NCBI GenBank assembly: GCA_009697455.1
Contig: SHUI01000001.1
Span: 2,679 to 66,678, forward strand
Direction: 5' to 3'
DNA length: 64,000 nucleotides
Origin: Bryobacterales bacterium
Lineage (GTDB): Bacteria; Acidobacteriota; Terriglobia; Bryobacterales; Bryobacteraceae
The notes under the pieces were generated by a model. It was not told where the DNA came from and did not search any database. It worked only from the letters and a program-made list of their open reading frames with translations. Position 1 is the first letter of the stretch; each line of letters opens with the position of its first letter. A program made the translations under genes and the position numbers. Shown here in pieces: positions 113 through 59,304 of the stretch.

Positions 113-121
113 GGATCACGA

Positions 122-423
122 TATTCCCCTCCTGGGACAGGAGGGGTGGCTGCGCGATCAAGAAATGCCGCGAAGCCTCATTTAACGCGCAGACGGGGTG
201 GTCCGTCTCGAAAATTATTCGTGAATGACCACCCCGTCCGCGTCTTTCTAACGGTTGCTGACGCGTCCACCCCTCCTGTTCCAGGAGTGCTCCAACCGGC
301 TCGCCGGTGCAATTACAGTAAGGAAGTAGGCGCATATCGCTTTTTGGTGAAAATTCGTGCAAGCCGCTGACTTTAAGTCGCTTATTGAGATAATGCTGCG
401 CCTACTTCCTTGAGAGGGGAATA
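122..423. repeat. Family-1 nested-palindrome element, copy A (right terminal hairpin interrupted by ~125 bp)
   Basis: TATTCCCCTCCTGGGACAGGAGGGGTGGCTGCGC...GCGCAGACGGGGTGGTC-loop-GACCACCCCGTCCGCG...CCACCCCTCCTGTTCCAGGAG spans 122-287. The rest of the terminal motif (AGGGGAATA) appears only at 413-423. Confidence 0.8.
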
Positions 424-5500: not shown

Positions 5501-5951
5501 CCTGCGAGCCCGCGAGGAGTCGCGCGGGATTCGCCGGATCCACCGCGAGCGCACAGACCGGCTGGTCCGTAAACCGCGCGAGGGCCGTCCAGGTTTTTCC
5601 GCCGTCCGCCGATCGCTCAACGCCCTGCCCGGCGCGGGGACTTTGATCGTCTCCCGTCCCGGCATAGAGCACGTCCGGAAAATGCGGATCGAGGATCAGG
5701 GAGCAAACCTGCAGCGAGGGACCTTCATCAAGCAGAGGAACCCATCTCACGCCGCCATCCTGGGTTTTCCAAAGGCCTCCTCCCGGCGCGGCGAGATACA
5801 GGACAGAATCGCTTCGCGGATCCACGGCCAGCGCGAGAATGCGCGCGGGGGCGGCGAGAGGGCCCGCGTAATTCCAGGTCTGAGCGAATGCGGGCTGGGC
5901 AAATGTGAGAGCGATCCAGGCACAGCAAACCGCAAGAGAGAAAAAACGTAT
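2508..5951 (-). CDS. Giant secreted BNR/sialidase-like beta-propeller repeat protein with IPT-like plus Solibacter-type (TIGR03437-like) C-terminal domain
   Basis: Repeated SxDGGxTW motifs (SADGGKTWT, SSDGGLTWA, SADGGSTWS, STNGGAQF, TNSGSTWT, ANSGTTWT). The signal peptide is FFSLAVCCAWIALTFAQPAFAQ. The C-terminus reads PGIFT...FYAAGLGAV...GRYQVTVRVP...IPVQ. The ORF is open up to 6260, but everything 5' of 5951 is repeat element. No canonical start codon lies next to the signal peptide, so the start is unresolved. Confidence 0.8.
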   Translation of the reverse strand: MRFFSLAVCCAWIALTFAQPAFAQTWNYAGPLAAPARILALAVDPRSDSVLYLAAPGGGLWKTQDGGVRWVPLLDEGPSLQVCSLILDPHFPDVLYAGTGDDQSPRAGQGVERSADGGKTWTALARFTDQPVCALAVDPANPARLLAGSQEGLFLSSNTGSTWTRVLDSPVTSVALDAQGIVYAGMLGEDAAGTRKDILTRSSDGGLTWANLTLPPNLNVPEAVTNWVGVFIEGSTVNTIVSYQLNSRVPGTSPSSAQAPLSSMDFYRSADGGSTWSVPAAAGQARPPVAMLASPDTGSLYIAGNRLLASVDQGAGWYTIATTTSGFHAAALTGGMLLLGGEKGLTPVALVSRTPVLEISPLPLGQFLGVSLDSVNAIWAAGEGGLFGPLSSVNGTRVTGIGAVGRVAAAATGSTNIFAAGNTRIYGSTNGGAQFSADLVIADGELRAPFPPLVLDPVNTLSAYVAGRRLYHTTNSGSTWTDLAVVDPDLTHVVIALAMAPAQRTTLYAATACLPEVALTSCSPASRIWRSANSGTTWTQLSPVTGLVNRLAVDPRQTNTVYAAVGAFPAGPSISAGLLPGDLLRSTNGGALWASVRGNLPDAPVNTIVIDPASLPAQPTPGNPGVPGVPGVPGVPGVPGFVAFNQPAQTLYVGTDDGVFASFNAGTQWTEISSNLPRAPVTDLSLRQPGNILAAATFGRGIYSTSTAGLAAGVVATRLSMDVTLMQGASVTTGVTLTNASTTATNSWRLNSLDSWISLPAQNGTLQPGTSTQAVFRVSAAGLQVGVYLGRLELVSGPYVQNILVEAHVTPSPAQMRIVGPSNVTGVAGSALPSFQVLLSDASQVPLPGITVNFAIASGGGSLSAQTAHTNTVGVAATVLRLPATTGTVRVVATSRDLSATFTATAVTHPALLANSVVDGVTFNAYTPLGPGSILAIAGQNLAETALAAAPALLPSGLHTTQVVLAMPAGEVVLPLLSVSPLLVKAMLPFDVAPGTYRLRVEVASRRSNEIQISVAAFAPGIFTVSENGRGAGIFIKDDGSVVSAANPADRGTRVTFYAAGLGAVNPPIAAGQPGAVAEPLIRTVRSPRVFFDSYQAEVLFSGLVPGVAGRYQVTVRVPALVSPATNIPVSLTIGGFSSNRVTIPVQ

Positions 5952-6139
5952 TTCCCTCCTTGGAAAGGAGGGGTGGCGGCGCGACCCGGAAATTATTGCG
6001 AAGCCACTTTTGACCGCGCAGACGGGGTGGTCCGTCTCGAAAGGTTTTTCCAGAATGACCACCCCGTCTGCGCTTTCAGAGGTGGCTTCGCGGCCTTTTC
6101 TTGTTGCGCATCCACCCCTCCTCTTTGAGGAGGGGAATA
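5949..6139. repeat. Family-1 nested-palindrome element, copy B
   Basis: TATTTCCCTCCTTGGAAAGGAGGGGTGGCGGCGC...GCGCAGACGGGGTGGTC...GACCACCCCGTCTGCGC...CCACCCCTCCTCTTTGAGGAGGGGAATA. Symmetric arms. Confidence 0.9.
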
Positions 6140-6171
6140 CTGCGGTTGCTGATTTCAAATCCGCAAACACC

Positions 6172-12970: not shown

Positions 12971-13005
12971 TGAATACGAATTTTTGGATGTGTTTGAAGT
13001 TGTTG

Positions 13006-13195
13006 TATTCCCCTCCTGGAACAGGAGGGGTGGCTGCGCATCAAGAAAGAACTGCGAAGCAACCTTTGATAGCGCAGACGGGGTGGTCATTCTGGAACAA
13101 TTATTCAAGACGGACCACCCCGTCTGCGCCATCAGCGGTTGCTTCGCAGCTTTTTCTTGATCGCGCATCCACCCCTCCTCTGGGAGGAGGGGCTT
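13006..13195. repeat. Family-1 nested-palindrome element, copy C
   Basis: Full set of outer hairpins and inner arms with symmetric arms. The right end GGGAGGAGGGG lies 7 nt upstream of the cpaB ATG. Confidence 0.9.
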
Positions 13196-13199
13196 AACT

Positions 13200-14012
13200 A
13201 TGCAACGTCATCGAGTACTGATCGCTTTCGGAATCGCCTGGCTGACCGCCCTCGGCCTGAGCTGGTGGGTCTACCGCTCCAGCTCGGCTCCGGAGAAGCG
13301 CGACACCGTCTCGATCGTCGCCGCCGCAAAGGACCTCCCCATCGGAAAGCGCGTCGAAACCGCCGACGTCAAGCTGATCACGCTCGACCGCAAGGATCTT
13401 CCCAAAGGCGCGTTCCTGAAAGCCGCCGACATTGTCGACCGCGCGGTTTCCGTCCAGGTCACCACCAACGAGCCTATCCTCGCCGGCAAAATCGCCGCGA
13501 AGGGAAGTGGCGAAGGCCTCACCTCGCTGATCGAGCCCGGGACCCGCGCGATCTCCGTCCAGGTCAACGAAATCTCCGGCGTCTCCGGCTTCATCCAGCC
13601 GGGAACAAGAGTCGACGTCCTCTTCACCCGCGTCTTTTCCAACGGCGACGCGGCAACGGTTACGATTCTTCAGAACGTGAAAGTCATCGCCTACGGCAAG
13701 CAGCTCGAAGCCGCAGCCCGGGTCGACCCGCGCGATACGTCGAAGCCAACCGTCGCGACGTTACTCGTAACCCAGGACGAAGCCGAAAAACTCGTGCTCG
13801 CCATGCAGCGCGGACGCATCCAGTTGGTGCTGCGCAATGCATTGGATGAAGAAGTCAACGAAGACGTTATTCCCACGCAATCCGTGGATCTCGGAATCGA
13901 GGAGCCGCGCAGACCCGTCGCCGCGGTGCTCCGGCCCGGCATCCGGCCCGAACCCCGGAAAGTGATCCGCATCTACCGCGGCGACAAACTTACGGAGCAA
14001 ATGGTCGAATGA
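13200..14012 (+). CDS. cpaB: Flp pilus assembly protein CpaB (SAF domain)
   Basis: 270 aa with an N-terminal TM anchor and a SAF-like segment (VAAAKDLPIGKRVETADVKLITL). Its position upstream of the secretin gene fits the Tad locus. Confidence 0.9.
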   Translation: MQRHRVLIAFGIAWLTALGLSWWVYRSSSAPEKRDTVSIVAAAKDLPIGKRVETADVKLITLDRKDLPKGAFLKAADIVDRAVSVQVTTNEPILAGKIAAKGSGEGLTSLIEPGTRAISVQVNEISGVSGFIQPGTRVDVLFTRVFSNGDAATVTILQNVKVIAYGKQLEAAARVDPRDTSKPTVATLLVTQDEAEKLVLAMQRGRIQLVLRNALDEEVNEDVIPTQSVDLGIEEPRRPVAAVLRPGIRPEPRKVIRIYRGDKLTEQMVE

Positions 14013-14055
14013 GCGGCTGCGAATGCAAGCCCGACAGGGCGCAGCCATCAAGTAA

Positions 14056-15426: not shown

Positions 15427-16715
15427 ATACGCAGTCCATGATTCACCAGCGCGGGGCGGCCACTGTTTATTTCGTGCTGTTCACGCTGGTGGTTTTGGGA
15501 CTTCTTGTGTTGGCGACGGACGTCGGACGCATGTATCTGATCCAGGGAGAACTGCAGACCGCGGCCGACGCCGCAGCGCTGGCTTCGGCGATGCAACTCG
15601 TGGGGACCACCAATGCTCTCATTCACGCGGAGGACCAGGTAACGGCATCCTTTGATTCCACCACTGGCAACGACAACCGATTCAATCTGCGCCAGAACTC
15701 GATCGCCATTTCCGCCGGCCTCGTGGCGACAACCGAGATGAGTTACTTCTCCACCCTCGAAGACGCGCTCGCAAATCTGAACAGCGGCCAGACCGGCGGC
15801 ATCGACTGGAGCAGCGGCGCCTATCCGAAATACGTGCGCGTCCAGATCACGGCACAGGCGCCCGTGATTTTCGTGCCGCTGCTGAACAACCTCGTCAACA
15901 CGCTGCCGACGGTCACCGCTTCGTCCGTCGCCGGAATCAGCTCTCCCATGTGCACGACATGCGGAATTGACGGCCTCGCCGTGGTGGATCCCAGCGCCGG
16001 TATCGATCCCATCAACTTCGGTTTCGTGCCGGGGGATTTCTACACGCTGTACCTGGACACAACGCAGCAGACGCCGAATGTACCGGTCGTGCAGGCCGTG
16101 CTTGCCGATACGGTCGCCGCCGTCCCGTACGCGATTCTGAATCACGTTCCGGGCGGACCTCCGGACCTCGACCTCGATGGCCTGATGTTCGAGATGGGCG
16201 CCGCAGGGATTTCCCGTGCGGAGAACGTCGTCGCTGAAACCGTCGAGGTGGCCTATCCCGATCTTGTGGATAATGTCGCAGCGGCGGTGGGTCAGGACGT
16301 TCTTTGCGGTCTGAACACGCGCTTCGGCGTCGATCCCTCTGAGAATGTGTGCGCCACTTTGAACAACGGCGAATTTGTGGAGCTTGCTCCGTTCTTCGGC
16401 GCCGATCCCGACCTCGGCGCGGAGACGTACGCGGCCGGCGTGGGCCTGCAGGATTTCGCGACGGAATATGACGGCACCGCTCGCCGTGTTCTCACGGTGC
16501 CGGTCATCGACCTCGTCGATTCCCTGAACGTTCTTGGATTTCGCCAATTCCTGCTCGAGATGTCGCCGACGGTGGCCCTGGGCCTCGACCCGTCGCTTGT
16601 CAGCGGCGCCTTCCGCGTCCAGTACATCGGCGGGCTGGTCCCGCTTCGCTGCGGCGGCATCGGCGGGGTTTGCACCACCTCCAACGGCGGTGTCGGAAGG
16701 GTGGTGCTGCATTGA
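15423..16715 (+). CDS. tadG: TadG-like pilus assembly protein (TadE/G-like N-terminal domain)
   Basis: QRGAATVYFVLFTLVVLGLLVLATDVGRMYLIQGELQTAADAAALA matches the TadE/G-like N-terminal helix. The GTG start overlaps the cpaC stop. Confidence 0.8.
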   Translation: MNTQSMIHQRGAATVYFVLFTLVVLGLLVLATDVGRMYLIQGELQTAADAAALASAMQLVGTTNALIHAEDQVTASFDSTTGNDNRFNLRQNSIAISAGLVATTEMSYFSTLEDALANLNSGQTGGIDWSSGAYPKYVRVQITAQAPVIFVPLLNNLVNTLPTVTASSVAGISSPMCTTCGIDGLAVVDPSAGIDPINFGFVPGDFYTLYLDTTQQTPNVPVVQAVLADTVAAVPYAILNHVPGGPPDLDLDGLMFEMGAAGISRAENVVAETVEVAYPDLVDNVAAAVGQDVLCGLNTRFGVDPSENVCATLNNGEFVELAPFFGADPDLGAETYAAGVGLQDFATEYDGTARRVLTVPVIDLVDSLNVLGFRQFLLEMSPTVALGLDPSLVSGAFRVQYIGGLVPLRCGGIGGVCTTSNGGVGRVVLH

Positions 16716-16725
16716 GACGGCTTGG

Positions 16726-17185
16726 GAAGTCTGCGGAGGACTTTGGTAAGAAGTTTGAGGAAAACGTTGGTGAGAAATTTAGGGAAAGGTTTGAAAAAAC
16801 CTTTAGGGGAAGCTTTGGAAAAAGCCTTAAGAAAAACCTGAGGAAGTTTGGAAAGAAGTTTGGAAAAAGGTATTCCCCTCCTCGGACAGGAGGGGTGGCT
16901 GCGCAACCAGAAAAAAGCTGCGAAGCCACCTTTGATAGCGCAGACGGGGTGGTCATAAAGGAAAATTCATTCTGGTCTGAACACCCCGTCTGCGCCCTTC
17001 AAAGGATGCCTTCGGCGCTATCTTCTGATGGCGCATCCACCCCTCCTTTCCAAGGAGGGGAATACCTTTCCTCCAACTTCCTCACCCTTCCCAGTTCCCT
17101 CAACTTCCCCAGTTCCTCCAGCTTCCCCTCCTCCCCCAACCTTCCCAATTCCCTTAACTCCCTCATCTCCCTCAACCATAAATTC
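16726..17185. repeat. Composite ~460-bp imperfect palindrome: purine-rich 12-nt degenerate tandem repeats, copy D, then mirrored pyrimidine-rich repeats
   Basis: The left arm (16726-16870) has about 12 units of RRRNTTTGGRRR (GAAGTTTGAGGA, AAACGTTGGTGA, AGCTTTGGAAAA...). The right arm (17065-17185) has about 10 units that are roughly their reverse complement (TTCCTCCAACTT, CCCCAGTTCCTC...). Confidence 0.7.
16871..17064. repeat. Family-1 nested-palindrome element, copy D
   Basis: TATTCCCCTCCTCGGACAGGAGGGGTGGCTGCGC...GCGCAGACGGGGTGGTC...AACACCCCGTCTGCGC...CCACCCCTCCTTTCCAAGGAGGGGAATA. The right arm is the AAGGATGCCTTCGGC variant. Confidence 0.9.
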
Positions 17186-17689
17186 CGGTCCCAGCGCGGA
17201 CAGGCCGTCGTCGAGATCGCGTTCCAGATTCCGTTGATGATGGCGCTCCTCTTCGGTGGAGTGGGAATCGGGCGCGTCTTCTACACGTACCACTCCCTCC
17301 AGAAGGCCCTCCGCGGCGGCGCCGGCCTCGCGGCCAAATCGATCAACGTCAATTACTGCGACACCTCCGACCTGACCCTGGCCGACGTCCGCAACTTCGT
17401 CGTCTACGGGAACCTGCAGGGGGTGGGCAATCCCGTCGTCCCCGGCCTCACCACGGACATGGTCCAGATCCTCCCCGAGCGCGGCATCCCCGACTCGACC
17501 GGCCTCACCGAGTGCATCTGCACCACCGACGCCGACAGTTGCGACGTCGCCTCCACCGGCCGCGTTCCCGACTTCGTCGTCCTCAACTTCGGCCCGGACG
17601 GCTTCCCGTTACCCGTGCCATTCCCATTCGTCAACCTCGGCACCGTCAACCTGCGCGTCTCCGTGCGCATGCCGGTCACAGGGAGTTGA
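17006..17689 (+). CDS. tadE: TadE-like pseudopilin (start unresolved; possibly element-derived leader or pseudogene)
   Basis: The TadE domain begins at RSQRG/QAVVEIAFQIPLMMALLFGG (~17190). No in-frame ATG, GTG or TTG lies between the repeat element and this motif. The nearest in-frame ATG (17006) is inside copy D. Confidence 0.6.
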   Translation: MPSALSSDGASTPPFQGGEYLSSNFLTLPSSLNFPSSSSFPSSPNLPNSLNSLISLNHKFRSQRGQAVVEIAFQIPLMMALLFGGVGIGRVFYTYHSLQKALRGGAGLAAKSINVNYCDTSDLTLADVRNFVVYGNLQGVGNPVVPGLTTDMVQILPERGIPDSTGLTECICTTDADSCDVASTGRVPDFVVLNFGPDGFPLPVPFPFVNLGTVNLRVSVRMPVTGS

Positions 17690-17690
17690 G

Positions 17691-18206
17691 ATGATGATGA
17701 TGATGAAGAAGAACCGCTCCGGACAGGCAACCGTCGAGATGGCCCTCGCCCTCGTCTTCGTCGTCCTCCCGCTGACGCTCGGCCTGCTCGCCTTCATCGA
17801 GATCGCCTGGACCTATCACGCGCTCACAACCCTCACCCGGCAGGGCGCGCGCTACGCCGCCAACCACTGCTGGCAGGACAGCTCCGGCTCCAACGTCGTC
17901 ACCTGGATGCAGGGCAACTCCCCGTCCTTTCCCGATCGCCAGGAATTGATCAGCGGCGGTATCCAGGTCCAGGTGAACTACTGGCGCCACGATCCCGAAA
18001 CCCACACGAGCGTCGCGTTCGAATGCGGCGGCGGTTGCGATCTCCAATGCGTGCCCGACTCGGTCACCGTCAGCATCACCGGATACTCGTTCAACCATTT
18101 CCTCCCGATGCTCGGCTTCCAGCCGCTCCAGGTCCCGCCGTTCTCCACGACGGTCGAGATGCAGAGCGCGGGAGCCAATCCCGAAACGGCGGTGTCGTTG
18201 CCATGA
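17691..18206 (+). CDS. tadE: TadE-like pseudopilin
   Basis: MMMMMKKNRSG/QATVEMALALVFVVLPLTLGLLAFIEIAW. This is the typical TadE N-terminal processing motif plus a hydrophobic helix. Confidence 0.85.
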   Translation: MMMMMKKNRSGQATVEMALALVFVVLPLTLGLLAFIEIAWTYHALTTLTRQGARYAANHCWQDSSGSNVVTWMQGNSPSFPDRQELISGGIQVQVNYWRHDPETHTSVAFECGGGCDLQCVPDSVTVSITGYSFNHFLPMLGFQPLQVPPFSTTVEMQSAGANPETAVSLP

Positions 18207-19351
18207 TCCAGCTCATCGTCGCCAGCGCCGAACCCCGCTTTCTCGACTTCGTCCGCGAGACGAACGCCGAGGTCATCGGCACGCATGAGGACATGGGTCC
18301 GAATCTCGCACAGCGCATCCTCCACGATGTGAACGCAAGCCCGCAGTCCGCGGTTCTCCTCGATATTTCCCTGGATGTCGAGCAGGGCCTCCGAACACTC
18401 GAACAGATCAAGCAGTCCGGCCCGGATGTCTACGTGATCCTCTCCGATATGAACTGCACCCAGGACTTCCTGCTGCGGTCGATGCGTTCAGGCAGCGCCG
18501 ATTTCCTCCAGCAGCCGCTGAAGCGCGCCGAATTCAGCGAAGCGATGACCCGCGTCGAACAGCACACGCAGCGCGTTCAGCGTCAGGACCGCCAGATCGG
18601 CCGCATGTACAGCTTCGTCGGCGTCAAAGGCGGCGTCGGAACCACCACCGCCGCGTTGAATTTCGCTGCCATCTGCGCGAAGCACGGCAAGTCCACGGTG
18701 CTCGTCGACCTCGACATGGATTCCGGCGACGCGGCCTCCTACCTTGGCCTGCGTCATCAATACTCGCTCGCCGATGTCGTCGACGGTCTCGATCAACTCG
18801 ACCAGGCGATGCTCGAAGGCATCATGGTTCGCGATGCGCTCGGCTTCCAGGTGTTGTGCGCGCCCGAGGAAATCGAGCGATCGCGCCTGATCGGAGAAGA
18901 ACATCTCCGCGAGATCGGCAGCTTCCTCATCGAGCGCTACGACGCCGTCATCGTCGATGGCTCCCGCGCCCTCGACGGCCTGCTGCTGAGTTGTCTTGAA
19001 TTATCGGAGTCGATCTTCGTGGTGCTGACCGAAGAGTTTCCCGCGGTCCGCAACGCGCAACATTACTTGAGCGCGCTCGCCCGCGCCGGTTACGGAATGG
19101 AAGCGGTGAAGCTGGTGGTGAACCGTCATGAGAAGAAAGGTTCGCTCCACGTGAGTCTCGAGCAGCTGAAGCAGACGCTCGGCGCCTCGCCTTTCTGGGT
19201 TCTACCCAACAAGTACGAAGAAGCAATGACCGCGGTGCACGAAGCCCGCCCGGTCGTGATGAAGGGCAACGCCGAACTGGGCCGCTCCTATCGGGATTTT
19301 GCGAAGAAGCTTGGCATGAACGGCCAGCCGCCCTCGCCCGGGAAGAAGTAG
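18203..19351 (+). CDS. cpaE: CpaE/TadZ: receiver-like N-domain plus MinD/ParA-type ATPase
   Basis: The start MIQLIVAS overlaps the tadE stop (ATGA). The deviant Walker A is VGVKGGVGTTTAALNFA. The position before cpaF fits the Tad locus. Confidence 0.85.
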   Translation: MIQLIVASAEPRFLDFVRETNAEVIGTHEDMGPNLAQRILHDVNASPQSAVLLDISLDVEQGLRTLEQIKQSGPDVYVILSDMNCTQDFLLRSMRSGSADFLQQPLKRAEFSEAMTRVEQHTQRVQRQDRQIGRMYSFVGVKGGVGTTTAALNFAAICAKHGKSTVLVDLDMDSGDAASYLGLRHQYSLADVVDGLDQLDQAMLEGIMVRDALGFQVLCAPEEIERSRLIGEEHLREIGSFLIERYDAVIVDGSRALDGLLLSCLELSESIFVVLTEEFPAVRNAQHYLSALARAGYGMEAVKLVVNRHEKKGSLHVSLEQLKQTLGASPFWVLPNKYEEAMTAVHEARPVVMKGNAELGRSYRDFAKKLGMNGQPPSPGKK

Positions 19352-19383
19352 GCGCGGACTTTACTTTGGTGTGGAGTGATTGT

Positions 19384-19583
19384 TGTATTGAGTTCCCCTC
19401 CTGGGACAGGAGGGGTGGCTGCGCAACCAGGAAAAAGCGGCGAAGCCACCTTTGATAGCGCAGACGGGGTGGTCATTCTGAAAAAATATTTCCAGAATGA
19501 CCACCCCGTCTGCTCCAGCTTCGGAGGCTTCGCAGCTTTTGCTTGATCGTCGCATCCACCCCTCCTGTCCCAGGAGGGGAATA
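19384..19583. repeat. Family-1 nested-palindrome element, copy E
   Basis: Symmetric arms and a palindromic central loop (CATTCTGAAAAAATATTTCCAGAATG). The right end AGGAGGGGAATAT runs directly into the cpaF ATG at 19585. Confidence 0.9.
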
Positions 19584-19584
19584 T

Positions 19585-20868
19585 ATGGGGATTATGGCAT
19601 TTGTACCAACAATCCGGGCTGCGGCTTCTCACTCGGACCTCAAGACCAAGGTCCACCGCAGGCTGCTGCAGTCGCTGAACAGCGATACGCTGCGCCTTAT
19701 CAGCAAGGAGCGCCTCCGCGGCGAAATCGGCCAGGCCGTCGAGAAACTCCTCCTCCAGGAAAACATCCCGATGACGCTCCCCGAGCGGGATCGCATTATC
19801 GAAGAAATTCTGGATGAGGTCTTCGGCTTCGGACCCCTCGAGCCCCTGATGAAGGACCCCACCATCACCGACATCCTCGTCAACAACTACAGCAAGGTCT
19901 ACATCGAACGCCGCGGCGTCCTTCGCCGCGCCGACATCCAATTCAAGGACAACAAGCACCTCCTCCACATCATCGAGAAAATGGTCACCGCCGTCGGCCG
20001 CCGCATCGACGAAGCCAATCCCATCGTCGCCGCCCGCCTCGCCGACGGCTCGCGCGTCACCGCCGCGATCCCCCCGGTCACGCTCGACGGGCCCGCGTTA
20101 TCCATACGCAGGTTTGGAGGACGCGTCCTCAGTAATGACGAGCTCCTCGCCAACGACACGCTCACCCCGGCCATGCTCCAACTCCTCGACGGCTGCGTTC
20201 GCGCCCGCCTGAACATGGTGATCTCCGGCGGCAGCGGCAGCGGCAAGACGACATTACTCAACGCCCTCTCCCGCTTCATCCCCGAGACCGAGCGCATCGT
20301 CACGATTGAAGACATCGCCGAGTTGATGCTCCAGCAGCGCCACGTCGTCCGTCTCGAAACCCGCGAAGCCAGCATCGAAGGCCAGGGTGCCGTCACCCCT
20401 CGCGACCTCATGATCAACTCCCTCCGCATGCGTCCCGACCGCATCATCGTCGGCGAGGCGCGCGGCCCTGAAGCGCTCGACATGCTCCAGGCCATGAACA
20501 CCGGTCACGACGGCTCCATGACCACCATGCACGCCAACTCGCCTTCAGATTGTTTTCATCGGATTCAGACCATGGTACTTATGGCCAACGTCGGCCTGAC
20601 CGAGCCGGTGATCCGTCAACAAGCCGCCTCCGCCATTCAGGTTGTCGTCCAGATGTCCCGCCTTCGCGACGGCACCCGCAAGGTCACCAGCATCGCGGAG
20701 GTCATCGGCTTCAATGACAAAGGCGTCGAGATCGGAGAAATTTTCCGTTACGAACGCACCGGCACGGACGCCTCCGGCCGCGTGGAGGGACGATTCGCCG
20801 CCACCGGCTATCGCCCCCAGTTCATGGATCGCCTGAAAGCCCGCGGCATCGAATTTCCCGAACTATGA
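19585..20868 (+). CDS. cpaF: CpaF/TadA Tad secretion ATPase
   Basis: Walker A GGSGSGKTT, plus VTIEDIAEL and RPDRIIVGEARGPEALDMLQAMNTGHDGS. The ORF track extends to 19543, but that part is repeat element. ATG 19585 has the SD AGGAGGGG 5 nt upstream. Confidence 0.9.
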   Translation: MGIMAFVPTIRAAASHSDLKTKVHRRLLQSLNSDTLRLISKERLRGEIGQAVEKLLLQENIPMTLPERDRIIEEILDEVFGFGPLEPLMKDPTITDILVNNYSKVYIERRGVLRRADIQFKDNKHLLHIIEKMVTAVGRRIDEANPIVAARLADGSRVTAAIPPVTLDGPALSIRRFGGRVLSNDELLANDTLTPAMLQLLDGCVRARLNMVISGGSGSGKTTLLNALSRFIPETERIVTIEDIAELMLQQRHVVRLETREASIEGQGAVTPRDLMINSLRMRPDRIIVGEARGPEALDMLQAMNTGHDGSMTTMHANSPSDCFHRIQTMVLMANVGLTEPVIRQQAASAIQVVVQMSRLRDGTRKVTSIAEVIGFNDKGVEIGEIFRYERTGTDASGRVEGRFAATGYRPQFMDRLKARGIEFPEL

Positions 20869-21806
20869 CGACGTTTCTCACCATGTTGATCTTCACCGCC
20901 GCCTTCGCGGCCGCGGCGGAGTTTGCCGTGTGGGGACCCCAGCGCCGCATCCGCTCTGAAATCGGCAACCGCCTCCGCGGCCTCCGCGTCGCAACCGGTC
21001 CACGAGCCGGCTCACTACTTCGCCAGCAGCATCAATTCGGCGTTTCCCGTCTGCAAATAATCAAAGGTCTCCAGGCCATCATCGACCAGGCCCGTCTCAC
21101 GTACCGCGCCGGAAATGTCCTGACATTCAGCGCGCTGCTTCTCGCCGGCAGCTACCTCGCGGCGGACATCCTCCAGCTCTTCCCCTTCTTCATCCTTAAA
21201 CTCTTCTTCGCAGCCGGCTGCTCCCTCCTGCCTTACTTCTACATCCGGACCAGGCGCAACAGCCGCATGCGCCAGATCGAGGAGGTGCTTCCCGACGCGA
21301 TCGACCTCTTTACGCGCGCCATGCGCGCCGGCCACAACATTCATAGCGGCCTGTCGGTCCTCGCCGAAGAAACCCCCGAACCGCTCGGCGGTGAATTCAA
21401 GAAACTCGTTGAGGATCTCGCCCTCGGCTCCCAAGTCTCCGAAGCCCTGCACAGCCTCGGCGACCGCGTCCCGATCCTGGACCTTCGCTTCTTCTCCACC
21501 GGCGTGATCCTGCAGCGCGAAACCGGCGCCAACATCGTCACCGTGATGGAGAACCTGTCGGCGGTGATCCGCGAGCGCCTGCAACTGCGCGCAAAACTCC
21601 GCGCCCACACGGCGCAGCAGCGCTTTTCGGCCGCGCTGCTCTGCGGACTGCCCGTCGTGAGCGGCATCGCGTTCTACTTCCTGCGCTACGAATACATCTC
21701 GGTGCTCTGGCTGACGCCGCTCGGCTCGCGCTTCCTTATTTATGGAATCATTTCCGAAATTCTCGGCATCGTGGTCGTCCGCAAGGTTGCATCGGTGAGG
21801 CTCTGA
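20865..21806 (+). CDS. tadB: TadB (T2SS-F domain inner-membrane platform protein)
   Basis: 313 aa with TM helices flanking a cytoplasmic T2SSF-type domain (LPDAIDLFTRAMRAGHNIHSGL). The ATGA overlaps cpaF. Confidence 0.9.
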   Translation: MTTFLTMLIFTAAFAAAAEFAVWGPQRRIRSEIGNRLRGLRVATGPRAGSLLRQQHQFGVSRLQIIKGLQAIIDQARLTYRAGNVLTFSALLLAGSYLAADILQLFPFFILKLFFAAGCSLLPYFYIRTRRNSRMRQIEEVLPDAIDLFTRAMRAGHNIHSGLSVLAEETPEPLGGEFKKLVEDLALGSQVSEALHSLGDRVPILDLRFFSTGVILQRETGANIVTVMENLSAVIRERLQLRAKLRAHTAQQRFSAALLCGLPVVSGIAFYFLRYEYISVLWLTPLGSRFLIYGIISEILGIVVVRKVASVRL

Positions 21807-21807
21807 T

Positions 21808-22731
21808 ATGCCGCTGAGTTTTCCCATAATGTTTCTCCTCATCACGCTCGCCGGCGCCACGTTGCTGGTCGCCGGGGTGAGCTACTACCTCCGCACGCGG
21901 CAGAACGCCCTGAGCCGCCGCATCGAGGAACTCCAGGAGCAATCCATGACCGGCAGCGGGCTCGTGCTGCTCGGCGGCGACTTCTGGGACACGCTGCTCC
22001 GGGCCACGTACGGCACGATCCTGGGAAAAAGTTGGTTCCGGCAAAAAGAGGTGGAGTTGATGCGTGCCGGATTCCGCGGCCCCCGCGTCGTGAAGATTTA
22101 TGGAGTCGCGTCGCTGGTGTTTACCGTGACCCTGCTCGCCGCCGCCGTGATCGCGCTCCAGGGCCAGGACCTGTCGATGTGGCTGCTCGGGTTGGCCGGA
22201 GCGCTGGTGCTCGGCTACTTCATTCCCGAGCAGGTGCTGACCTCGCTGCGGAGCCGGCACCGGCTGAGCCTGATGGCCGCCCTTCCGGACACCACGGATA
22301 TGCTGAGCATCGTATTGGGCGCCGGCCTGTCGCTGGACCAGGCGATCGCGCGCGTCGGCGAAGAGATCCGCTTTGTGTATCCGGAACTGGCGGATGAGTT
22401 CTACTGGATGACGCTGGAGGTCCAGGCCGGCCAGCAGCGCGCCGTGGCGTTTCAGCATATGGCCCAGCGCACTGGGTTGACGGATATCCGTTCCCTCGCG
22501 AGCATGATTGTTCAAGCCGAACGCTTCGGCACGGGCCTCTCGCAGGCCCTGCGCATTTACGCGGATTCGGTCCGCATGAAGCGCCGCCTCGAAATCGAAG
22601 CGAGCATCAACAAAGCCGCCGTGAAAATGGTTTTCCCGATTGTGCTGTTTATCCTGCCCGCGCTGTTTATTGTGATCCTCGCGCCGGGTATACTGTCTAT
22701 CCTTCGCGACCTCGCAGGGTTAGGACAATGA
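21808..22731 (+). CDS. tadC: TadC (T2SS-F domain inner-membrane platform protein)
   Basis: 307 aa paralogous in architecture to TadB (LPDTTDMLSIVLGAGLSLDQAI). It starts 2 nt after the tadB stop. Confidence 0.9.
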   Translation: MPLSFPIMFLLITLAGATLLVAGVSYYLRTRQNALSRRIEELQEQSMTGSGLVLLGGDFWDTLLRATYGTILGKSWFRQKEVELMRAGFRGPRVVKIYGVASLVFTVTLLAAAVIALQGQDLSMWLLGLAGALVLGYFIPEQVLTSLRSRHRLSLMAALPDTTDMLSIVLGAGLSLDQAIARVGEEIRFVYPELADEFYWMTLEVQAGQQRAVAFQHMAQRTGLTDIRSLASMIVQAERFGTGLSQALRIYADSVRMKRRLEIEASINKAAVKMVFPIVLFILPALFIVILAPGILSILRDLAGLGQ

Positions 22732-30900: not shown

Positions 30901-31092
30901 GTATTCCCCTCCTCAAAGAGGAGGGGTGGCTGCGCATCAAGAGAATGCTGCGAAGCTTCCTGTGAAAGCGCAGACGGGGTGGTCCGTCTCGAAAACGATC
31001 CGAAAATGACCACCCCGTCCGCGCCTTTCAATGTATGCCTTCAGCAATATTTCCTGAGGGCGCGTCCACCCCTCCTGTTCCAGGAGGGGAAC
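30901..31092. repeat. Family-1 nested-palindrome element, copy F
   Basis: TATTCCCCTCCTCAAAGAGGAGGGGTGGCTGCGC...GCGCAGACGGGGTGGTC...GACCACCCCGTCCGCGC...CCACCCCTCCTGTTCCAGGAGGGGAACA. Variant right arm. Confidence 0.9.
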
Positions 31093-31181
31093 ACCACTAC
31101 CCAGCTTCTACGGCTTGCTCTGCAGGAGACGGAAGGTGCATAGTCTCCACGTGCGAACCCGTCGCACATAAGGAGGCCAAA

Positions 31182-32240: not shown

Positions 32241-32300
32241 GTGCAAAGCCAAACCGGGTAGTGGGCTACTTTCAATTTCAGCAACCAGGCAAACAATAAA

Positions 32301-32405
32301 TCCCTCTCCCCCTGGGAGAGGGTTGGGTGAGGGTCGAAATCCTCCCGCCAATTCGACCCTCACCCGACGCTTCGCGTCGGCCTCTCCCAGAGGGAGAGGC
32401 GTTTT
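32301..32405. repeat. Cluster of four consecutive GC-rich hairpins (REP-like, 'PLPxGERG'-type sequence)
   Basis: The four hairpins are TCCCTCTCCCCCTGGGAGAGGG, GGGTGAGGGTCGAA...TTCGACCCTCACCC, GACGCTTCGCGTC and GGCCTCTCCCAGAGGGAGAGGC. They resemble a repeat type seen in many bacterial genomes. Confidence 0.6.
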
Positions 32406-34626: not shown

Positions 34627-34650
34627 CCGAACGCGGGCTACAGGGCAACG

Positions 34651-34812
34651 TATTCCCCTCCTGGAACAGGAAGGGTGGCTGCGCATCAAGAAGATGGTGC
34701 GGAGCGACCTTTGAAAGCGCAGACGGGGTGGTCCGTCCTGAATGACCACCCTGTCCGCGCCTTTTCTAACGTTTGATGGCGTGGCCACCCCTCCTTTCCA
34801 AGGAGGGGAATA
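34651..34812. repeat. Family-1 nested-palindrome element, copy G (short-loop, TTTCTAACG right-arm variant)
   Basis: TATTCCCCTCCTGGAACAGGAAGGGTGGCTGCGC...GCGCAGACGGGGTGGTCCGTCCTGAATGACCACCCTGTCCGCGC...CCACCCCTCCTTTCCAAGGAGGGGAATA. Confidence 0.9.
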
Positions 34813-34898
34813 CCTTTTGGCAACACGCCTAAAGGGCGCGTTTGCCTTGACCTGAATTCCGACCTGACATACCTTTCACGATCTGGAGGATAAGACGA

Positions 34899-36107: not shown

Positions 36108-36123
36108 CTTGGAAGAGTGTTGG

Positions 36124-36200
36124 TATTCCCCTCCTGGGACAGGAGGGGTGGCTACGCAGAAAGCGCAGACGGGGTGGTCATTCGAGACGGCCCGCCCCGT
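36124..36200. repeat. Family-1 element, copy H (truncated: left hairpin plus degenerate core)
   Basis: TATTCCCCTCCTGGGACAGGAGGGGTGGCTACGCAG-AAAGCGCAGACGGGGTGGTCATTCGAGACGGCCCGCCCCGT. The internal left-arm segment and the whole right half are missing. Confidence 0.75.
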
Positions 36201-36204
36201 AAAC

Positions 36205-37143
36205 CTACGGCGCGAGCTTGTACTTTTTAGCGCGTGCGAGAATTTCGGCCGAACGTTCCAGTTTTGCCGTGACGTCGTTGGGCAGCCTGTGGGAATTGAA
36301 AGTCTTCGGCATCATCCCCGTTGTCTTGAGCTCGGTGAGAGCCTGCAGATACGCCGCCAGGGCAATGTCCTGCACCATCGACGTATAGAACAACACGTGG
36401 ACTCCGGCTTTGATCGCTTCAGAGACCGGCACATCGGGTCCCATCTGAGCAAATATCGTTTTGGAAATTGCAGCAATCGTCCGCCGGGTCGTTTCGAGCG
36501 GCTGAACGCCGGGGAACAAAATCGCATCCGCCCCCGCCTCGGCGTAAGCCTTACCTCGATCGATCGCCTCCTCCAGCGTCTTCCCCGCGGCGAGAGCATC
36601 TGTACGCCCGACGATGATCATCTCGGAGCGGGCATCCACCGCAGCCTTAATCCGGTCGACCATCTGTGCGGTTGAAATGACATCCGCCTTCTGCCCAATC
36701 CGTTCGACGCGAATCCTGTCCTCGAACAGGATCCCGGCCAGTCCCGCTCTTTCAAAGTCTTTCGTCGCGCGATACACCGATACCGGGTTTCCGCCGCCGT
36801 TGTCGCAATCGCCAATCACGGGGATATCGACGTTCCTGGTAAGGCGCGTGGCAAACTCCAGCAGTTCCACGGTACTCGTCAGTCCCCAGTCAGGGAGTCC
36901 GTGTTCCATGGCCATGAGCGAGCCGCCCGCGTAAATGGAATCGAAGCCGGCAAGCTCCACCAGCCGCGCCGAAGGGCTGTCGAACGCGGCGATGCAGTAG
37001 AAGGGCTCGGGTCGGCGAAGCAGTTGCCGGAGACGCGCGGCCTTTGAGGCCGTTGAATTCGCCGGCGCCTGCGGTACCACCACGCCTGCCGCCGCAATTC
37101 CTGCCGTGCCTAGAAACTCACGGCGACTCGTTTTGTTGGACAT
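36205..37143 (-). CDS. Isocitrate lyase / PEP mutase-family enzyme with twin-arginine signal
   Basis: The start MSNKTSRREFLGTAGIAAAGVV carries SRRxFL. The core reads DIPVIGDCDNGGGNPVSVYRATKDFERAGLAGILFEDR. The longer ORF to 37482 overlaps the next gene and was rejected. Confidence 0.8.
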   Translation of the reverse strand: MSNKTSRREFLGTAGIAAAGVVVPQAPANSTASKAARLRQLLRRPEPFYCIAAFDSPSARLVELAGFDSIYAGGSLMAMEHGLPDWGLTSTVELLEFATRLTRNVDIPVIGDCDNGGGNPVSVYRATKDFERAGLAGILFEDRIRVERIGQKADVISTAQMVDRIKAAVDARSEMIIVGRTDALAAGKTLEEAIDRGKAYAEAGADAILFPGVQPLETTRRTIAAISKTIFAQMGPDVPVSEAIKAGVHVLFYTSMVQDIALAAYLQALTELKTTGMMPKTFNSHRLPNDVTAKLERSAEILARAKKYKLAP

Positions 37144-40310: not shown

Positions 40311-40405
40311 GGGGTAATTCGGGGACAGACGACTAAATCCCCTAATTAGACCAAGTACCTTTGAACCTAATTAAGTGATTTAGTCGTCTGTCCCCGAATT
40401 ACCCC
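40311..40405. repeat. 95-bp palindromic element (perfect 29-bp arms, 37-nt loop)
   Basis: GGGGTAATTCGGGGACAGACGACTAAATC (40311-40339) pairs with GATTTAGTCGTCTGTCCCCGAATTACCCC (40377-40405). The loop contains the direct repeat CCTAATTA twice. Confidence 0.85.
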
Positions 40406-40957: not shown

Positions 40958-41134
40958 TATTCCCCTCCTTGAAAAGGAGGGGTGGCTGCGCCATCAAATC
41001 GTTAGAACGGGCGCAGACGGGGTGGTCATTCTGGAAAAATCATTCTTGAATAACCACCCCGTCTGCGCTTTCAAAGGTGGCTTCGCAGCGTTTTCTTGAT
41101 GCGCAGCCACCCCTCTTCTTTGAGGAGGGGAATA
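40958..41134. repeat. Family-1 nested-palindrome element, copy I
   Basis: TATTCCCCTCCTTGAAAAGGAGGGGTGGCTGCGC...GCGCAGACGGGGTGGTCATTCTGG...AACCACCCCGTCTGCGC...CCACCCCTCTTCTTTGAGGAGGGGAATA. The left arm carries an internal deletion. Confidence 0.9.
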
Positions 41135-44792: not shown

Positions 44793-44877
44793 TGCCGGAG
44801 GGGGGACTTGAACCCCCACGATACTAAGTACCGGCAGATTTTGAGTCTGCTGCGTATGCCAATTTCGCCACTCCGGC
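44793..44877 (-). tRNA. tRNA-Leu (anticodon CAA)
   Basis: The reverse complement is GCCGGAGTGGCGAAATTGGCATACGCAGCAGACTCAAAATCTGCCGGTACTTAGTATCGTGGGGGTTCAAGTCCCCCCTCCGGCA. It has a 7-bp acceptor stem, anticodon stem GCAGA/TCTGC with loop CTCAAAA, a long variable arm and T-loop GGGGGTTCAAGTCCCCC. It is nearly collinear with E. coli tRNA-Leu(CAA) as I recall it. Confidence 0.9.
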
Positions 44878-49239: not shown

Positions 49240-50089
49240 ATGAAGCAAGCTTTTGTTTTTCTTCTCCTGGTTCTGCCCGGCGCCAGTATGGCACATGCAC
49301 AAGTGGTGGGAGGCGGGACGGTTATGCCGGCGCCTGTCCCGGTTTATGGTCCTTCGATGTCGATCATCGATCACAATGGCAATCTGCTGATCTTCGACGT
49401 GAACTACAATTATCCAACTCCGCATGCCGGGCACCCCGAGGATACTGACCAGAATTCCGGCATCCAAGACGCGTCTAACCGTCGTCAGGAAAAACGGAGA
49501 CAAGGACCTCCCCAAGGAATTCGAAGGTACCATCCAGGTTCTCGGCGCCGGATATTACGCGGTGTACGTGATTCTGAGCTCAAACACGATAACCAGGGCG
49601 AGCGGTAGTACCGCGGGGGTCACCATCACGGCGAAACGGCAACTGATGGCAATTAATCTCGACTCGACGGCGCGGCCGGCCCCACTCGATGTGCCTATGC
49701 GCGCCGACGTCAGGTTGTCGGCCGCTGCTGACGCTCCGCACCTGGACGCACTTTCATTTGTCGACCCTCCGGGCAATCCAATGATCCTTGCACCAGCGCG
49801 AGAAGCACCCACTTCGCCAGCTATCCAGCGCTTCGCCCAGCTGATTACTTGCAATGGAACGGCATTCAATTCAACCCAGCCAATCCCTCTGCCATTATTT
49901 CGGGTGAATTATTCCCCTCCTCAAAGAGGAGAGGTGGATGCGCATCAAGAAGATGCTGCGAAGCAACCTTTGGAAGCGCAGACGGGGTGGTCCGTCCAGA
50001 ATGACCACCCCGTCCGCGTCTTTCTAACGTTTGATGACGCGGCCACCCCTCCTGTGCCAGGAGGGGAAAATACGCTATCCAACCATTGA
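49240..50089 (+). pseudogene. Exported hypothetical protein, apparently frameshifted (~49425-49440), with its 3' end reading through repeat copy J
   Basis: The signal peptide is MKQAFVFLLLVLPGASMAHAQ in the frame of ORF 49183-49608. Coding-like sequence then continues in the +1 frame (ORF 49424-50089). That frame has no stop until 20 nt past the repeat element. Confidence 0.4.
49910..50072. repeat. Family-1 nested-palindrome element, copy J (short-loop, TTTCTAACG right-arm variant)
   Basis: TATTCCCCTCCTCAAAGAGGAGAGGTGGATGCGC...GCGCAGACGGGGTGGTCCGTCCAGAATGACCACCCCGTCCGCG...CCACCCCTCCTGTGCCAGGAGGGGAAAATA. Confidence 0.9.
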
Positions 50090-55182: not shown

Positions 55183-55761
55183 TATTCCCCTCCTCGCAGA
55201 GGGGGGTGGATGCGCATCAAGAAAATGCTGCGAAGCGGCCTTTGAATGCGCAGACGGGGTGGTCATTCAAGATTCATTTTTACCAAGCTTCTTCCGGATC
55301 TCCTCCAACACGCCGTCGAGGTCCCGGTACACCTTCTTGTTTTCAAATCGAACTACATGGATTCCTCGCTCCTCCAGATACTTCGTCCGCAGGGTGTCGT
55401 ACTCACCAGCCGCCGGACCGAAGTGCGGCGCCCCGTCCAATTCGACAACGACGCGACTTTGCGGACAAAAAAGTCGACAATGTACGGACCTATGCTCGAC
55501 TGCCGGCGAAATTTTTTCCCGTCAAGTTGGCGATTTTTCAGATGTGTCCACAGGACAGCCTCAGCTGCAGTTGAGGAATTGCGGAGTTCCTTCCGGTGTT
55601 CTCCCTTGCTTGTAACGTTGTAGATCCCGCGCTTGTGCTCAGTCACGAAAGACCCTGAGCAAGCTGGTCGCCAGAATGACCACCCCGTCTGCGCTCTCAA
55701 AGGTGGCTTCGCAGCATTTTTCTTGATGCGCAGCCACCCCTCCTCTTCGAGGAGGGGAATA
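55183..55761. mobile_element. Full-length family-1 element carrying a DUF559 endonuclease gene in its central loop
   Basis: The outer hairpins (55183-55212 and 55733-55761) and inner arms (55248-55268 and 55674-55694) are the same as in the short copies. About 400 bp of coding sequence replaces the short loop. Confidence 0.8.
55267..55646 (-). pseudogene. DUF559 (Vsr-like PD-(D/E)xK endonuclease) gene with a 1-nt frameshift at an A6/T6 run
   Basis: It starts at GTG: VTEHKRGIYNVTSKGEHRKELRNSSTAAEAVLWTHLKNRQLDGKKFRRQSSIGPYIVDFF. After re-reading one T at 55467-55472 it continues CPQSRVVVELDGAPHFGPAAGEYDTLRTKYLEERGIHVVRFENKKVYRDLDGVLEEIRKKLGKNES*. The joined 126 aa match the DUF559 pattern (LW..L..R...G.KFRRQ..IG.YIVDF.C....L.IELDG..H). 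Confidence 0.7.
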
Positions 55762-59273: not shown

Positions 59274-59304
59274 TATTCCCCTCCTGGAAAACAGGAGGGG
59301 AATA
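59274..59304. repeat. Solo terminal hairpin of family-1 element
   Basis: TATTCCCCTCCTGGAAAACAGGAGGGGAATA begins 11 nt after the receptor stop codon. It has both element termini and no core. Confidence 0.8.

Follow-up and report, generated by a model that had tools for sequence, protein, structure and literature searches.

A DUF559 nuclease gene bracketed by inverted hairpin-and-G-run repeats in a Bryobacterales genome, a candidate nuclease-and-repeat module allied to the BoxC/PIT/TM repeats

The window analyzed here is a stretch of 64,000 nucleotides (nt) from a Bryobacterales bacterium (contig SHUI01000001.1), and at positions 55183-55761 it holds a nested palindrome whose center is filled by a gene for a DUF559-type nuclease. 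The two arms of the palindrome, 55183-55268 (86 nt) and 55674-55761 (88 nt), pair as three contiguous inverted-repeat blocks of 24, 23, and 47 nt with a complementarity of 91-96%. Each arm ends, on the side facing the gene, in a 21-nt inner arm, GCGCAGACGGGGTGGTCATTC, which lies at 55248-55268 and, as its reverse complement, at 55674-55694, and the two inner arms of this filled copy are separated by 405 nt. When the window was searched for GCGCAGACGGGGTGGTCATTC with at most three mismatches, 22 matches were recovered compared to 0.01 expected, and these fell at 12 loci, including the filled copy itself. The parts of the filled element, listed in the direction in which the gene is read, are the following.

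55674..55761, minus strand: gene-upstream arm, 88 nt, made up of hairpin 1, a self-folding variable module, and then the inner arm (from inverted-repeat pairs and the exact inner-arm match)
55737-55744 and 55750-55757: hairpin 1 of the gene-upstream arm, CCCCTCCT, loop, and AGGAGGGG
Complement of 55679-55686: 'third strand' GGGGTGGT in the gene-upstream inner arm (found with a script for a hairpin and a mirror G-run about 50 nt apart)
55647..55673, minus strand: 27-nt leader that separates the GTG start from the arm; alignment with the intact relative L082 shows about 75% conservation
55267..55646, minus strand: DUF559 (YcjD-like, Vsr-fold) nuclease gene that has lost 1 nt in the T run at 55467-55472 (both halves match Pfam PF04480)
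55183..55268, minus strand: gene-downstream arm, 86 nt, with the inner arm at 55248-55268, the variable module, and hairpin 1 at 55187-55206

An earlier sequence-only reading of this DNA had proposed these arms and inner-arm coordinates, which were borne out by inverted-repeat and inner-arm matching; it had also placed the stop codon (TGA, 55267-55269) over the end of one inner arm and the start codon (GTG, 55644-55646) 27 nt from the other arm, and both were found where it put them. In the gene-downstream arm, GGGGTGGT lies at 55256-55263 on the plus strand, and the hairpin 1 at 55187-55206 has lost one base. When the matching arm of one of the short, gene-less copies described below was folded alone, it formed hairpin 1 and a second hairpin (hairpin 2) and left the G-run free.

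The insert between the arms encodes the DUF559 protein on the minus strand in two open reading frames (ORFs), 55353-55700 and 55267-55440. Both halves matched Pfam DUF559 (PF04480), with 53 and 39.6 bits compared to a curated gathering cut-off of 20.6, and they cover profile positions 6-52 and 59-108; these scores confirmed the minus-strand DUF559 gene that the sequence-only reading had placed there. Beyond DUF559, the Pfam scan of the insert gave only the restriction-endonuclease-like family MTES_1575; no GIY-YIG domain was found by that scan, and the long form encodes no transposase, the DUF559 nuclease being the sole ORF between the arms. The gene had been taken to be open from its GTG to its stop codon, and here a frameshift had been missed. 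Three-frame translation showed that the reading frame switches within the T6 run at 55467-55472 (plus strand), and alignment with the intact gene of L082, a metagenomic relative, showed that one T is missing from this run. The DUF559 gene of the window is thus inactive as sequenced, and it is either a pseudogene or the product of a homopolymer read error. After correction by one base, the product has 126 amino acids and retains D58, E69, D71, H75, R87, R100, and N103, which are the invariant columns of a 19-sequence alignment; the catalytic pattern, the D in IVDF followed by E-x-D-G-x-x-H, is likewise present in the corrected product, the frame being broken in the gene as sequenced. Since every invariant residue is kept once a single base is restored, the break is either recent or a homopolymer read error. 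A programmed frameshift was considered and rejected. A -1 slip on C-TTT-TTT-G would restore DFFCPQ, but the run is short, and in L082, the sole relative aligned at the nucleotide level, the run is interrupted (TTTCTTTT) and no slip is required. The frameshift was treated as a mutation or a read error.

Comparison with known structures placed the protein among the nucleases. The corrected product matched Protein Data Bank (PDB) entry 3hrl, a Neisseria 'endonuclease-like protein,' at E = 4e-20, and a profile of the family found the same entry as its best PDB match (E = 2e-33), followed by 3r3p, the homing endonuclease I-Bth0305I (E = 0.018). The NCBIfam model PRK09767, the YcjD equivalog, matched over its full length with 81.6 bits (E = 4e-23), below its cut-off of 218 bits. 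Judged by these matches, the window protein is a homologue of YcjD and not an equivalog, and it is a member of the Vsr/DUF559 branch of the PD-(D/E)xK nucleases; DUF559, Vsr, and I-Bth0305I were placed in one group by Steczkiewicz et al. The family is large, with 25,061 cluster representatives at E <= 0.001 among 1.84 billion proteins, and some of these representatives (for example, protein P0121) are fusions in which the DUF559 domain occurs two or three times.

Elsewhere in the window, the element has 11 gene-less relatives, including one that is truncated, where the sequence-only reading had counted twelve. The truncated one aside, these copies are 165 to 196 bp long with central loops of 3 to 16 nt, and the 'copy E' of that reading is present at 19458-19515 as quoted. 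All copies lie in narrow gaps between long ORFs.

120..300, minus strand: short copy, degenerate at one end; about 17-18 nt of the hairpin-2 module are missing from one arm
5948..6140, minus strand: short copy, full two-arm form
13005..13195, plus strand: short copy that folds as a single long hairpin (-80 kcal/mol, z = -15)
16870..17065, plus strand: short copy
19390..19585, plus strand: short copy (the 'copy E' of the sequence-only reading)
30901..31094, minus strand: short copy whose palindrome runs 7 nt into the flanks (GGTAGTG / CACTACC)
34650..34814, minus strand: short copy with a 3-nt loop; the hairpin-2 module of one arm is shorter by about 17-18 nt
36122..36215, plus strand: truncated copy, a single arm in which almost nothing separates hairpin 1 from the inner arm
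40958..41134, plus strand: short copy with the loop TGG-AAAAATCATTCT-TGA, the closest of all to the filled-copy junctions
49909..50075, minus strand: short copy with a 3-nt loop
61602..61785, plus strand: short copy

Nearly every copy carries CCCCTCCT, a 5-nt loop, and AGGAGGGG at both of its ends, the stems being 8 nt long and not 9, and the G-run GGGGTGGT, which is the mirror of AGGAGGGG with A changed to T, always lies on the inner side of the hairpin. The distance from the hairpin to GGGGTGGT is 48 to 54 nt in most window copies and 22 to 36 nt in a few, with a self-folding hairpin in between. Among nine short copies, the mean pairwise identity was 78% (range, 69 to 88%); the hairpin-1 stems and a 17-nt inner arm were nearly invariant, and the linker module and the loops varied. 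Compensatory changes in the palindrome were seen at only 2 of 49 pairs in these nine copies, which indicates conservation of the sequence and not of pairing alone. The constraint thus falls on the sequence of just the three motif parts, as would be expected from recognition by a protein, and such a constraint would be less expected if hairpin stability alone mattered. An Rfam scan of the whole window at gathering thresholds returned only a tRNA (44793-44877), and the repeats matched no described RNA family. A solo hairpin with the family stem, TTCCCCTCCT-GGAAAAC-AGGAGGGGAA, was also noted at 59276-59302, after the stop codon of a gene for a 1138-amino-acid TonB-receptor-like protein; it has neither an arm nor a G-run.

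The relation between the long and short forms was examined in an alignment of the 11 short copies with two filled copies. The terminal inverted repeats are common to both forms, each short copy matching both arms, and the loop of the short copies consists of the first 3 nt (TGG) and the last approximately 13 nt (AAAAATNATTCTT) of the filled insert, that is, of the end of the ORF (...GKNES*). These loops resemble the end of the window ORF more than that of L082. On this alignment, a deletion between two TGG triplets of the filled form would give the short-copy loop exactly. Intermediates of this kind were found in a series of Acidobacteria gp5 genomes that share an orthologous locus with flanks 92 to 98% identical. 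There, complete arms at locus L093 enclose three pieces of the ORF (about 70, 40, and 40 nt), with a full gene next to them, L001 lacks 39 nt, the start codon included, and L092 (2440-3100) and L117 (2800-3400) have a second DUF559 gene in tandem after a minimal inner-arm palindrome. Two kilobases away in the same genomes, a second site holds a solo hairpin, a half element, or a full short element, and what distinguishes the half element from the solo form is a deletion between GCGCC repeats. Moreover, near-identical ORFs were seen in different flanks in metagenome assemblies. Because the short-copy loop is a remnant of the ORF end and because L093 is an intermediate, the short forms are best read as internal-deletion derivatives of filled copies; they are old derivatives, and the loci of this series are unstable. 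No direct repeat that could be a target-site duplication flanks any copy, and two copies show palindromic extensions into their flanks instead.

The arms of the filled copy are 90% identical to the filled-copy arms of L082 compared to 74 to 88% identical to the local short copies, and this closer match across organisms than within the window suggests either a stronger constraint on gene-bearing copies or a horizontal arrival of this one. The sequence-only reading had seen in the filled element a parent with derivatives like miniature inverted-repeat transposable elements (MITEs). The internal-deletion origin of the short copies agrees with that proposal, and the tie between DUF559 and the repeats held as well; the view of this copy as the recent parent did not hold, the gene being frameshifted and its arms being nearer those of L082. 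The label 'autonomous' likewise stays unproven for a 126-amino-acid nuclease with no evident strand-joining activity.

The closest public homologues of the window protein are 73 to 79% identical to it and 124 to 128 amino acids long. One of them, P0006, occurs on five soil-metagenome contigs between a pilin-like gene and an unknown gene, a neighborhood that differs from that in the window. This gene, intact in L082 (124 amino acids, 74% identical), lies between 88-nt arms that have the same sequence as those of the window, are 94% complementary, and stand 406 nt apart; in the comparison with L088 and L089, the arms are 88 to 94% identical, and the insert is 75 to 77% identical. No short copies were present in the 10.6 kb of L081, near the closest intact relative. 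Of 77 metagenomic relatives with enough flanking DNA (soil; 47 to 77% identity), about 60 were bracketed by an inverted repeat scoring at least 24, and nearly all of these arms open with (T)CCCCTCCT-loop-AGGAGGGG, their gene-proximal ends reading GCGC(A/C)G(AC)GGGGTGGT. The sequence-only reading would have been undone had no other DUF559 gene been embedded in the same element; the intact homologue in L082 and these bracketed relatives show that others are.

The association extends to more distant relatives, for which 67 loci were drawn from one-per-species genomes of many phyla, the nearest DUF559 protein there being 61% identical to that of the window. A flanking inverted repeat scoring at least 14 with an ungapped scorer was found at 61% of these loci compared to 1.2% of 249 control positions shifted within the same loci. 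A triplex-type motif, in which a hairpin is combined with a mirror G-run, was found within the gene ± 300 nt at 54 of the 67 genome loci compared to 10 of 249 controls (Fisher P = 7e-38) and at 46 of 50 metagenome loci compared to 8 of 83 controls (Fisher P = 1e-22). When the two sets were pooled, 100 of 117 DUF559 relatives had such a motif at a distance of no more than 300 nt, as did 18 of 332 control windows (81 to 92% versus 4 to 10% in the separate sets). In the metagenome set, the G-run faced the gene at 42 loci on the upstream side and at 49 on the downstream side, compared to 8 and 5 where it faced the other way. The same layout with differing sequences was seen in Alphaproteobacteria, Nitrospirota, Bacteroidota, Peribacteria, Deinococcus, Picosynechococcus, and Neisseria and at ycjD of Escherichia coli, and motifs stand beside a DUF559 gene in N. 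gonorrhoeae, on plasmid pAQ6 of Picosynechococcus PCC 7002, in Deinococcus proteolyticus, and in Azospirillum lipoferum. In N. gonorrhoeae (L172, the homologue of the 3hrl protein), direct repeats of about 100 nt lie on either side of the gene, each of which holds CCCTCTCCC-TGT-GGGAGAGAG-CTA-GAGAGAGGG.

Two further occurrences were recorded. In a Cyclobacteriaceae metagenome-assembled genome (L027, 1900-4150), a DUF559 gene is surrounded by a cluster of eight C/G hairpins that share this stem type, which recalls arrays like those of bacterial interspersed mosaic elements (BIMEs). The 17-nt inner-arm core also occurs once on each of five contigs classified as viral (L167 to L171, IMG/VR).

Full-text searches found no paper linking DUF559, YcjD, or COG2852 to these repeats, and the papers that contain the word DUF559 do not have it in their titles or abstracts, in agreement with the statement in the sequence-only reading that no repeat family tied to DUF559 had been described. 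What appears to be new is that DUF559 is paired with triplex-type repeats; both the general kind, a nuclease with a repeat of its own, and the repeat class were already known. 'DUF559 domain-containing protein' has been found to be 14-fold enriched among predicted targets of programmed inversion (PMC9881135), for which flanking inverted repeats are one possible reason.

Across phyla, the layout of the motif is constant: a C/T-only stem, a short loop, the complementary purine stem, a linker, and a G-run that mirrors the purine stem, A being either retained or exchanged for T. The motif reads CCCTCCCC-TTGA-GGGGAGGG-TCA-GGGTGGGG in Alphaproteobacteria, CCCTCTCCCC-A-GGGGAGAGGG-TTT-GGGTGAGGGG in Peribacteria, and CCTCCCCT-TTGTA-AGGGGAGG followed by a G-run in Nitrospirota, and the second-loop spacing in related subfamilies ranges from 3 to 40 nt. 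By its sequence, the arm layout of the window family is the architecture of the BoxC/PIT/TM 'intrastrand triplex' repeats, and the motif itself is not new. Such repeats have been on record for decades from E. coli, other Enterobacteria, Cyanobacteria, and further groups, in hundreds of genomes, and are associated with genome instability, with no partner enzyme reported. The E. coli form, TM_ECO, is CCCTCGCCCC-TTT-GGGGAGAGGG-TTA-GGGTGAGGGG, with 23 copies in strain MG1655 and 3,610 in 262 proteobacterial genomes; it is always intergenic, often occurs in inverted pairs, and has been linked to local rearrangement, TM loci being rearrangement hot spots (PMC4666352). The window also contains an inverted pair of E. 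coli-type triplex motifs, as follows.

32300..32400, no strand assigned: inverted pair of E. coli-type triplex motifs, CCCTCTCCC-CCT-GGGAGAGGG-TT-GGGTGAGGG and its partner on the other strand; intergenic

With a second loop of 2 nt, this pair is of the canonical type when compared to Table 1 of PMC4666352, and it belongs to the same motif class and to a different family. A CCWGG site of the Vsr type in the hairpin loops was considered and dismissed because the loops vary.

E. coli K-12 (L166; NC_000913.3, 1351204-1351760) has TM_ECO no. 9 at a distance of 168 nt downstream of ycjD. A degenerate reverse-complement motif overlaps the last codons at the 3' end of ycjD, and between the two motifs lies a partial duplication of the ycjD 3' end. 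Of 5426 complete E. coli genomes, 3378 carry the gene and about 2050 lack it, and in genomes without it (L176 and L177), the eefRABCD efflux operon occupies the same fabI-sapF site. A 2026 study inferred that eef was lost independently two or more times and that ycjD is found where it had been in every case (PMC12817139). The TM motif counts given by Holder et al. are 23 in MG1655, 29 in 55989, and 1 in IHE3034; MG1655 carries ycjD, and IHE3034 would be expected to lack it. In a spread sample of genomes, further near-identical copies of TM no. 9 numbered about 3.5 in genomes with ycjD and about 1.3 in those without. Strain 55989 belongs to phylogroup B1 and IHE3034 to phylogroup B2, and these patterns between ycjD and TM motifs in E. 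coli are hints that are confounded by phylogeny.

From the anatomy of the element, the association across phyla, the deletion series, and the nuclease fold, we consider it probable that 55183-55761 is a decayed full-length member of a nuclease-and-repeat module, in which a DUF559 gene is bracketed by inverted copies of a composite motif and from which the palindromes of about 190 bp arose by internal deletion. By analogy with the RAYT-REP and Ssn-SRM systems, the nuclease would recognize the flanking motif, probably folded in single-stranded or extruded DNA, and would nick or cut beside it; repair, replication, or recombination by the host may then copy, delete, or rearrange the elements. A broader proposal, to which we give even odds, is that the BoxC/PIT/TM repeats have their missing partner enzymes in the YcjD-like DUF559 nucleases and that the two together form a third, independently evolved class of nuclease plus structured repeat, in which a Vsr-fold enzyme would recognize a folded hairpin plus G-run (possibly a triplex) and would generate, spread, or destabilize the repeats.

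Several points weigh against this interpretation. The cutting of these motifs by DUF559 is argued by analogy, as is the route by which copies reach new intergenic sites; a lone nuclease of 126 amino acids cannot join strands, and there is no target-site duplication, so that spread to new sites is left unexplained. Within the window, the DUF559 gene is frameshifted, and the local short copies are old (69 to 88% mutual identity) and give no sign of current activity. The second loop is about 48 nt long in the window family compared to 3 nt in the published definition of TM, and the triplex was observed in vitro with no stable triplex in vivo (Holder et al. 2015, PMC4666352). The orientation of the motif is not universal, the repeats being direct in Neisseria and Picosynechococcus and the G-run being distal in Deinococcus. 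The control windows were not confined to intergenic DNA, and the near-identical ORFs in differing flanks rest on metagenome assemblies, which are prone to mis-joining at repeats.

The alternative that survives best, and which we nonetheless regard as unlikely, is homing, which the sequence-only reading had also raised: the product of a free-standing gene resembling that of a homing endonuclease would cut the center of empty copies of a host repeat, with the arms serving as homology for repair from a filled copy and the palindromes arising and spreading by other means. Arms of 86 nt are sufficient homology for such repair. The fold is held in common with the EDxHD/Vsr-like homing endonuclease I-Bth0305I, the arms are better conserved than the ORF, the filled-copy arms are nearer the filled copy of another organism than the local short copies, and the missing target-site duplication would fit as well. 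However, the short copies keep the last approximately 13 nt of the filled insert, which marks them as derived from filled copies and not as virgin targets, and L093 with its three ORF fragments is the intermediate of such a derivation. Homing also has no palindrome center to enter at the direct-repeat motifs of Neisseria and Picosynechococcus, and it leaves the spread of palindromes to a dozen intergenic sites unaccounted for.

There is a slim chance that the palindromes are REP- or MITE-like repeats whose movement depends on an enzyme encoded elsewhere (a RAYT, a transposase, or host recombination) and that DUF559 is an unrelated repair or defense nuclease, captured or retained between them as a passenger. 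DUF559 proteins are indeed usually annotated as very-short-patch-repair endonucleases, the gene occurs in only 1 of the 12 window elements, and weak matches to defense nuclease domains were obtained (DpdF and a methyl-directed restriction enzyme, E of about 1e-3). These last were marginal, however, and PADLOC gave no significant match. No transposase, RAYT (Y1_Tnp), or GIY-YIG gene was found among the 30 larger ORFs of the window. Against a passenger, the pairing holds across phyla while the motif sequence changes, at 81 to 92% compared to 4 to 10% in controls, which makes a chance capture unlikely. That DUF559 is an ordinary housekeeping mismatch-repair nickase beside hairpins that act as terminators or mRNA-stabilizing elements, of a sort frequent in intergenic DNA, is very improbable, since, although hairpin 1 with its T-rich sequence resembles a terminator (minus strand, 55204-55187), all copies lie between genes, and the solo hairpin at 59276 directly follows the stop codon of the TonB-receptor gene, terminators need neither a mirror G-run facing the gene nor an upstream arm, ycjD is present or absent within E. 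coli (3378 of 5426) where it replaces an efflux operon, and tandem arrays and decayed fragments are unlike a housekeeping gene.

The module reading matters in that DUF559 has no assigned role and the BoxC/PIT/TM repeats have no enzyme or function attached, and their consistent physical link suggests that each explains the other. The pairing can be tested in E. coli K-12, which has one DUF559 gene (ycjD) and 23 TM motifs. If the nuclease recognizes the motif, it would bring a third fold to the nuclease-and-palindrome systems beside RAYT-REP and Ssn-SRM, and it could yield reagents for structure- or sequence-specific DNA cutting, as Ssn did. If true, the proposal might also lie behind some of the DUF559 enrichment in predicted invertible segments and might account for some of the assembly breaks and rearrangements in genomes of soil Acidobacteria.

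Other features of the window were recorded in passing. An unrelated palindrome at 40311-40405, with 39-nt arms that are 95% complementary and a 17-nt loop (GGGGTAATTCGGGGACAGACGACTAAATCCCCTAATTAG ...), may represent another repeat family, and a perfect 28-nt inverted repeat, AGGAATTGAGGGACGGAGACCGAATTCT, with a 14-nt loop lies between two long ORFs at 2440-2509. A Tad/Flp pilus cluster occupies 13200-22731, and the ORF at 26014-26907 matches the AbiEii toxin (a type IV toxin-antitoxin nucleotidyltransferase).

Among known systems, I-Bth0305I (3r3p) has a related catalytic fold; its gene lies in a group I intron of a phage, and the enzyme carries additional DNA-binding regions, whereas the window protein is free-standing, about 125 amino acids long, and encoded between repeats. 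The likeness to MITEs lies in a gene-bearing long form accompanied by many short forms that arose by internal deletion and keep both ends, the short forms being less than 300 bp long, intergenic, and able to fold into long hairpins. Here, in contrast, the element contains no DDE or other transposase and shows no target-site duplication, and its terminal inverted repeats are 86 to 88 nt long, so that the two arms make up nearly the whole short copy. REP/BIME-RAYT systems also have the gene of a DNA-cutting enzyme bracketed by inverted copies of a dispersed hairpin, with repeats that far outnumber the genes. The enzymes differ, however, in that HUH/Y1 enzymes cut and rejoin single-stranded DNA, whereas DUF559 has a metal-dependent hydrolytic fold without known joining activity.

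The Ssn-SRM/NTS system (Chenal et al. 2025, PMC11893778) likewise combines a small single-domain nuclease gene with hairpin repeats on both sides; in 42% of homologues, ssnA has its hairpin repeat on either side, and Ssn cuts single-stranded DNA beside the repeat (PMC11893778). As in the DUF559 family, the repeats are also dispersed without the gene, in tens to hundreds of copies, protein and motif covary across phyla, and the 'repeat-gene-repeat' layout resembles that of insertion sequences, as the Ssn authors remarked. Ssn has the GIY-YIG fold, whereas the window protein has a Vsr-like PD-(D/E)xK fold, and the Ssn motif is ATTCCC-N8-GGGAAT with an oriented 5' flank, whereas that of the window is a C/T-only stem with a mirror G-run. 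The gene-less copies here are inverted pairs, palindromes of about 190 bp that hold ORF remnants, and cleavage specific to single-stranded DNA was demonstrated for Ssn, whereas cutting by DUF559 is predicted by analogy. The repeats themselves are akin to BoxC/PIT/TM, which have a C-rich stem, a loop, a G-rich stem, a loop, and another stem rich in G and which are intergenic, single or in inverted pairs, and tied to local deletions and rearrangements. The published motifs have 9-nt stems and a 3-nt second loop, compared to 8-nt stems and a self-folding second loop of about 48 nt in the window family. Finally, Holder et al. found no mobility-related gene near the motifs (PMC4666352), and to this the link to DUF559 is added here.

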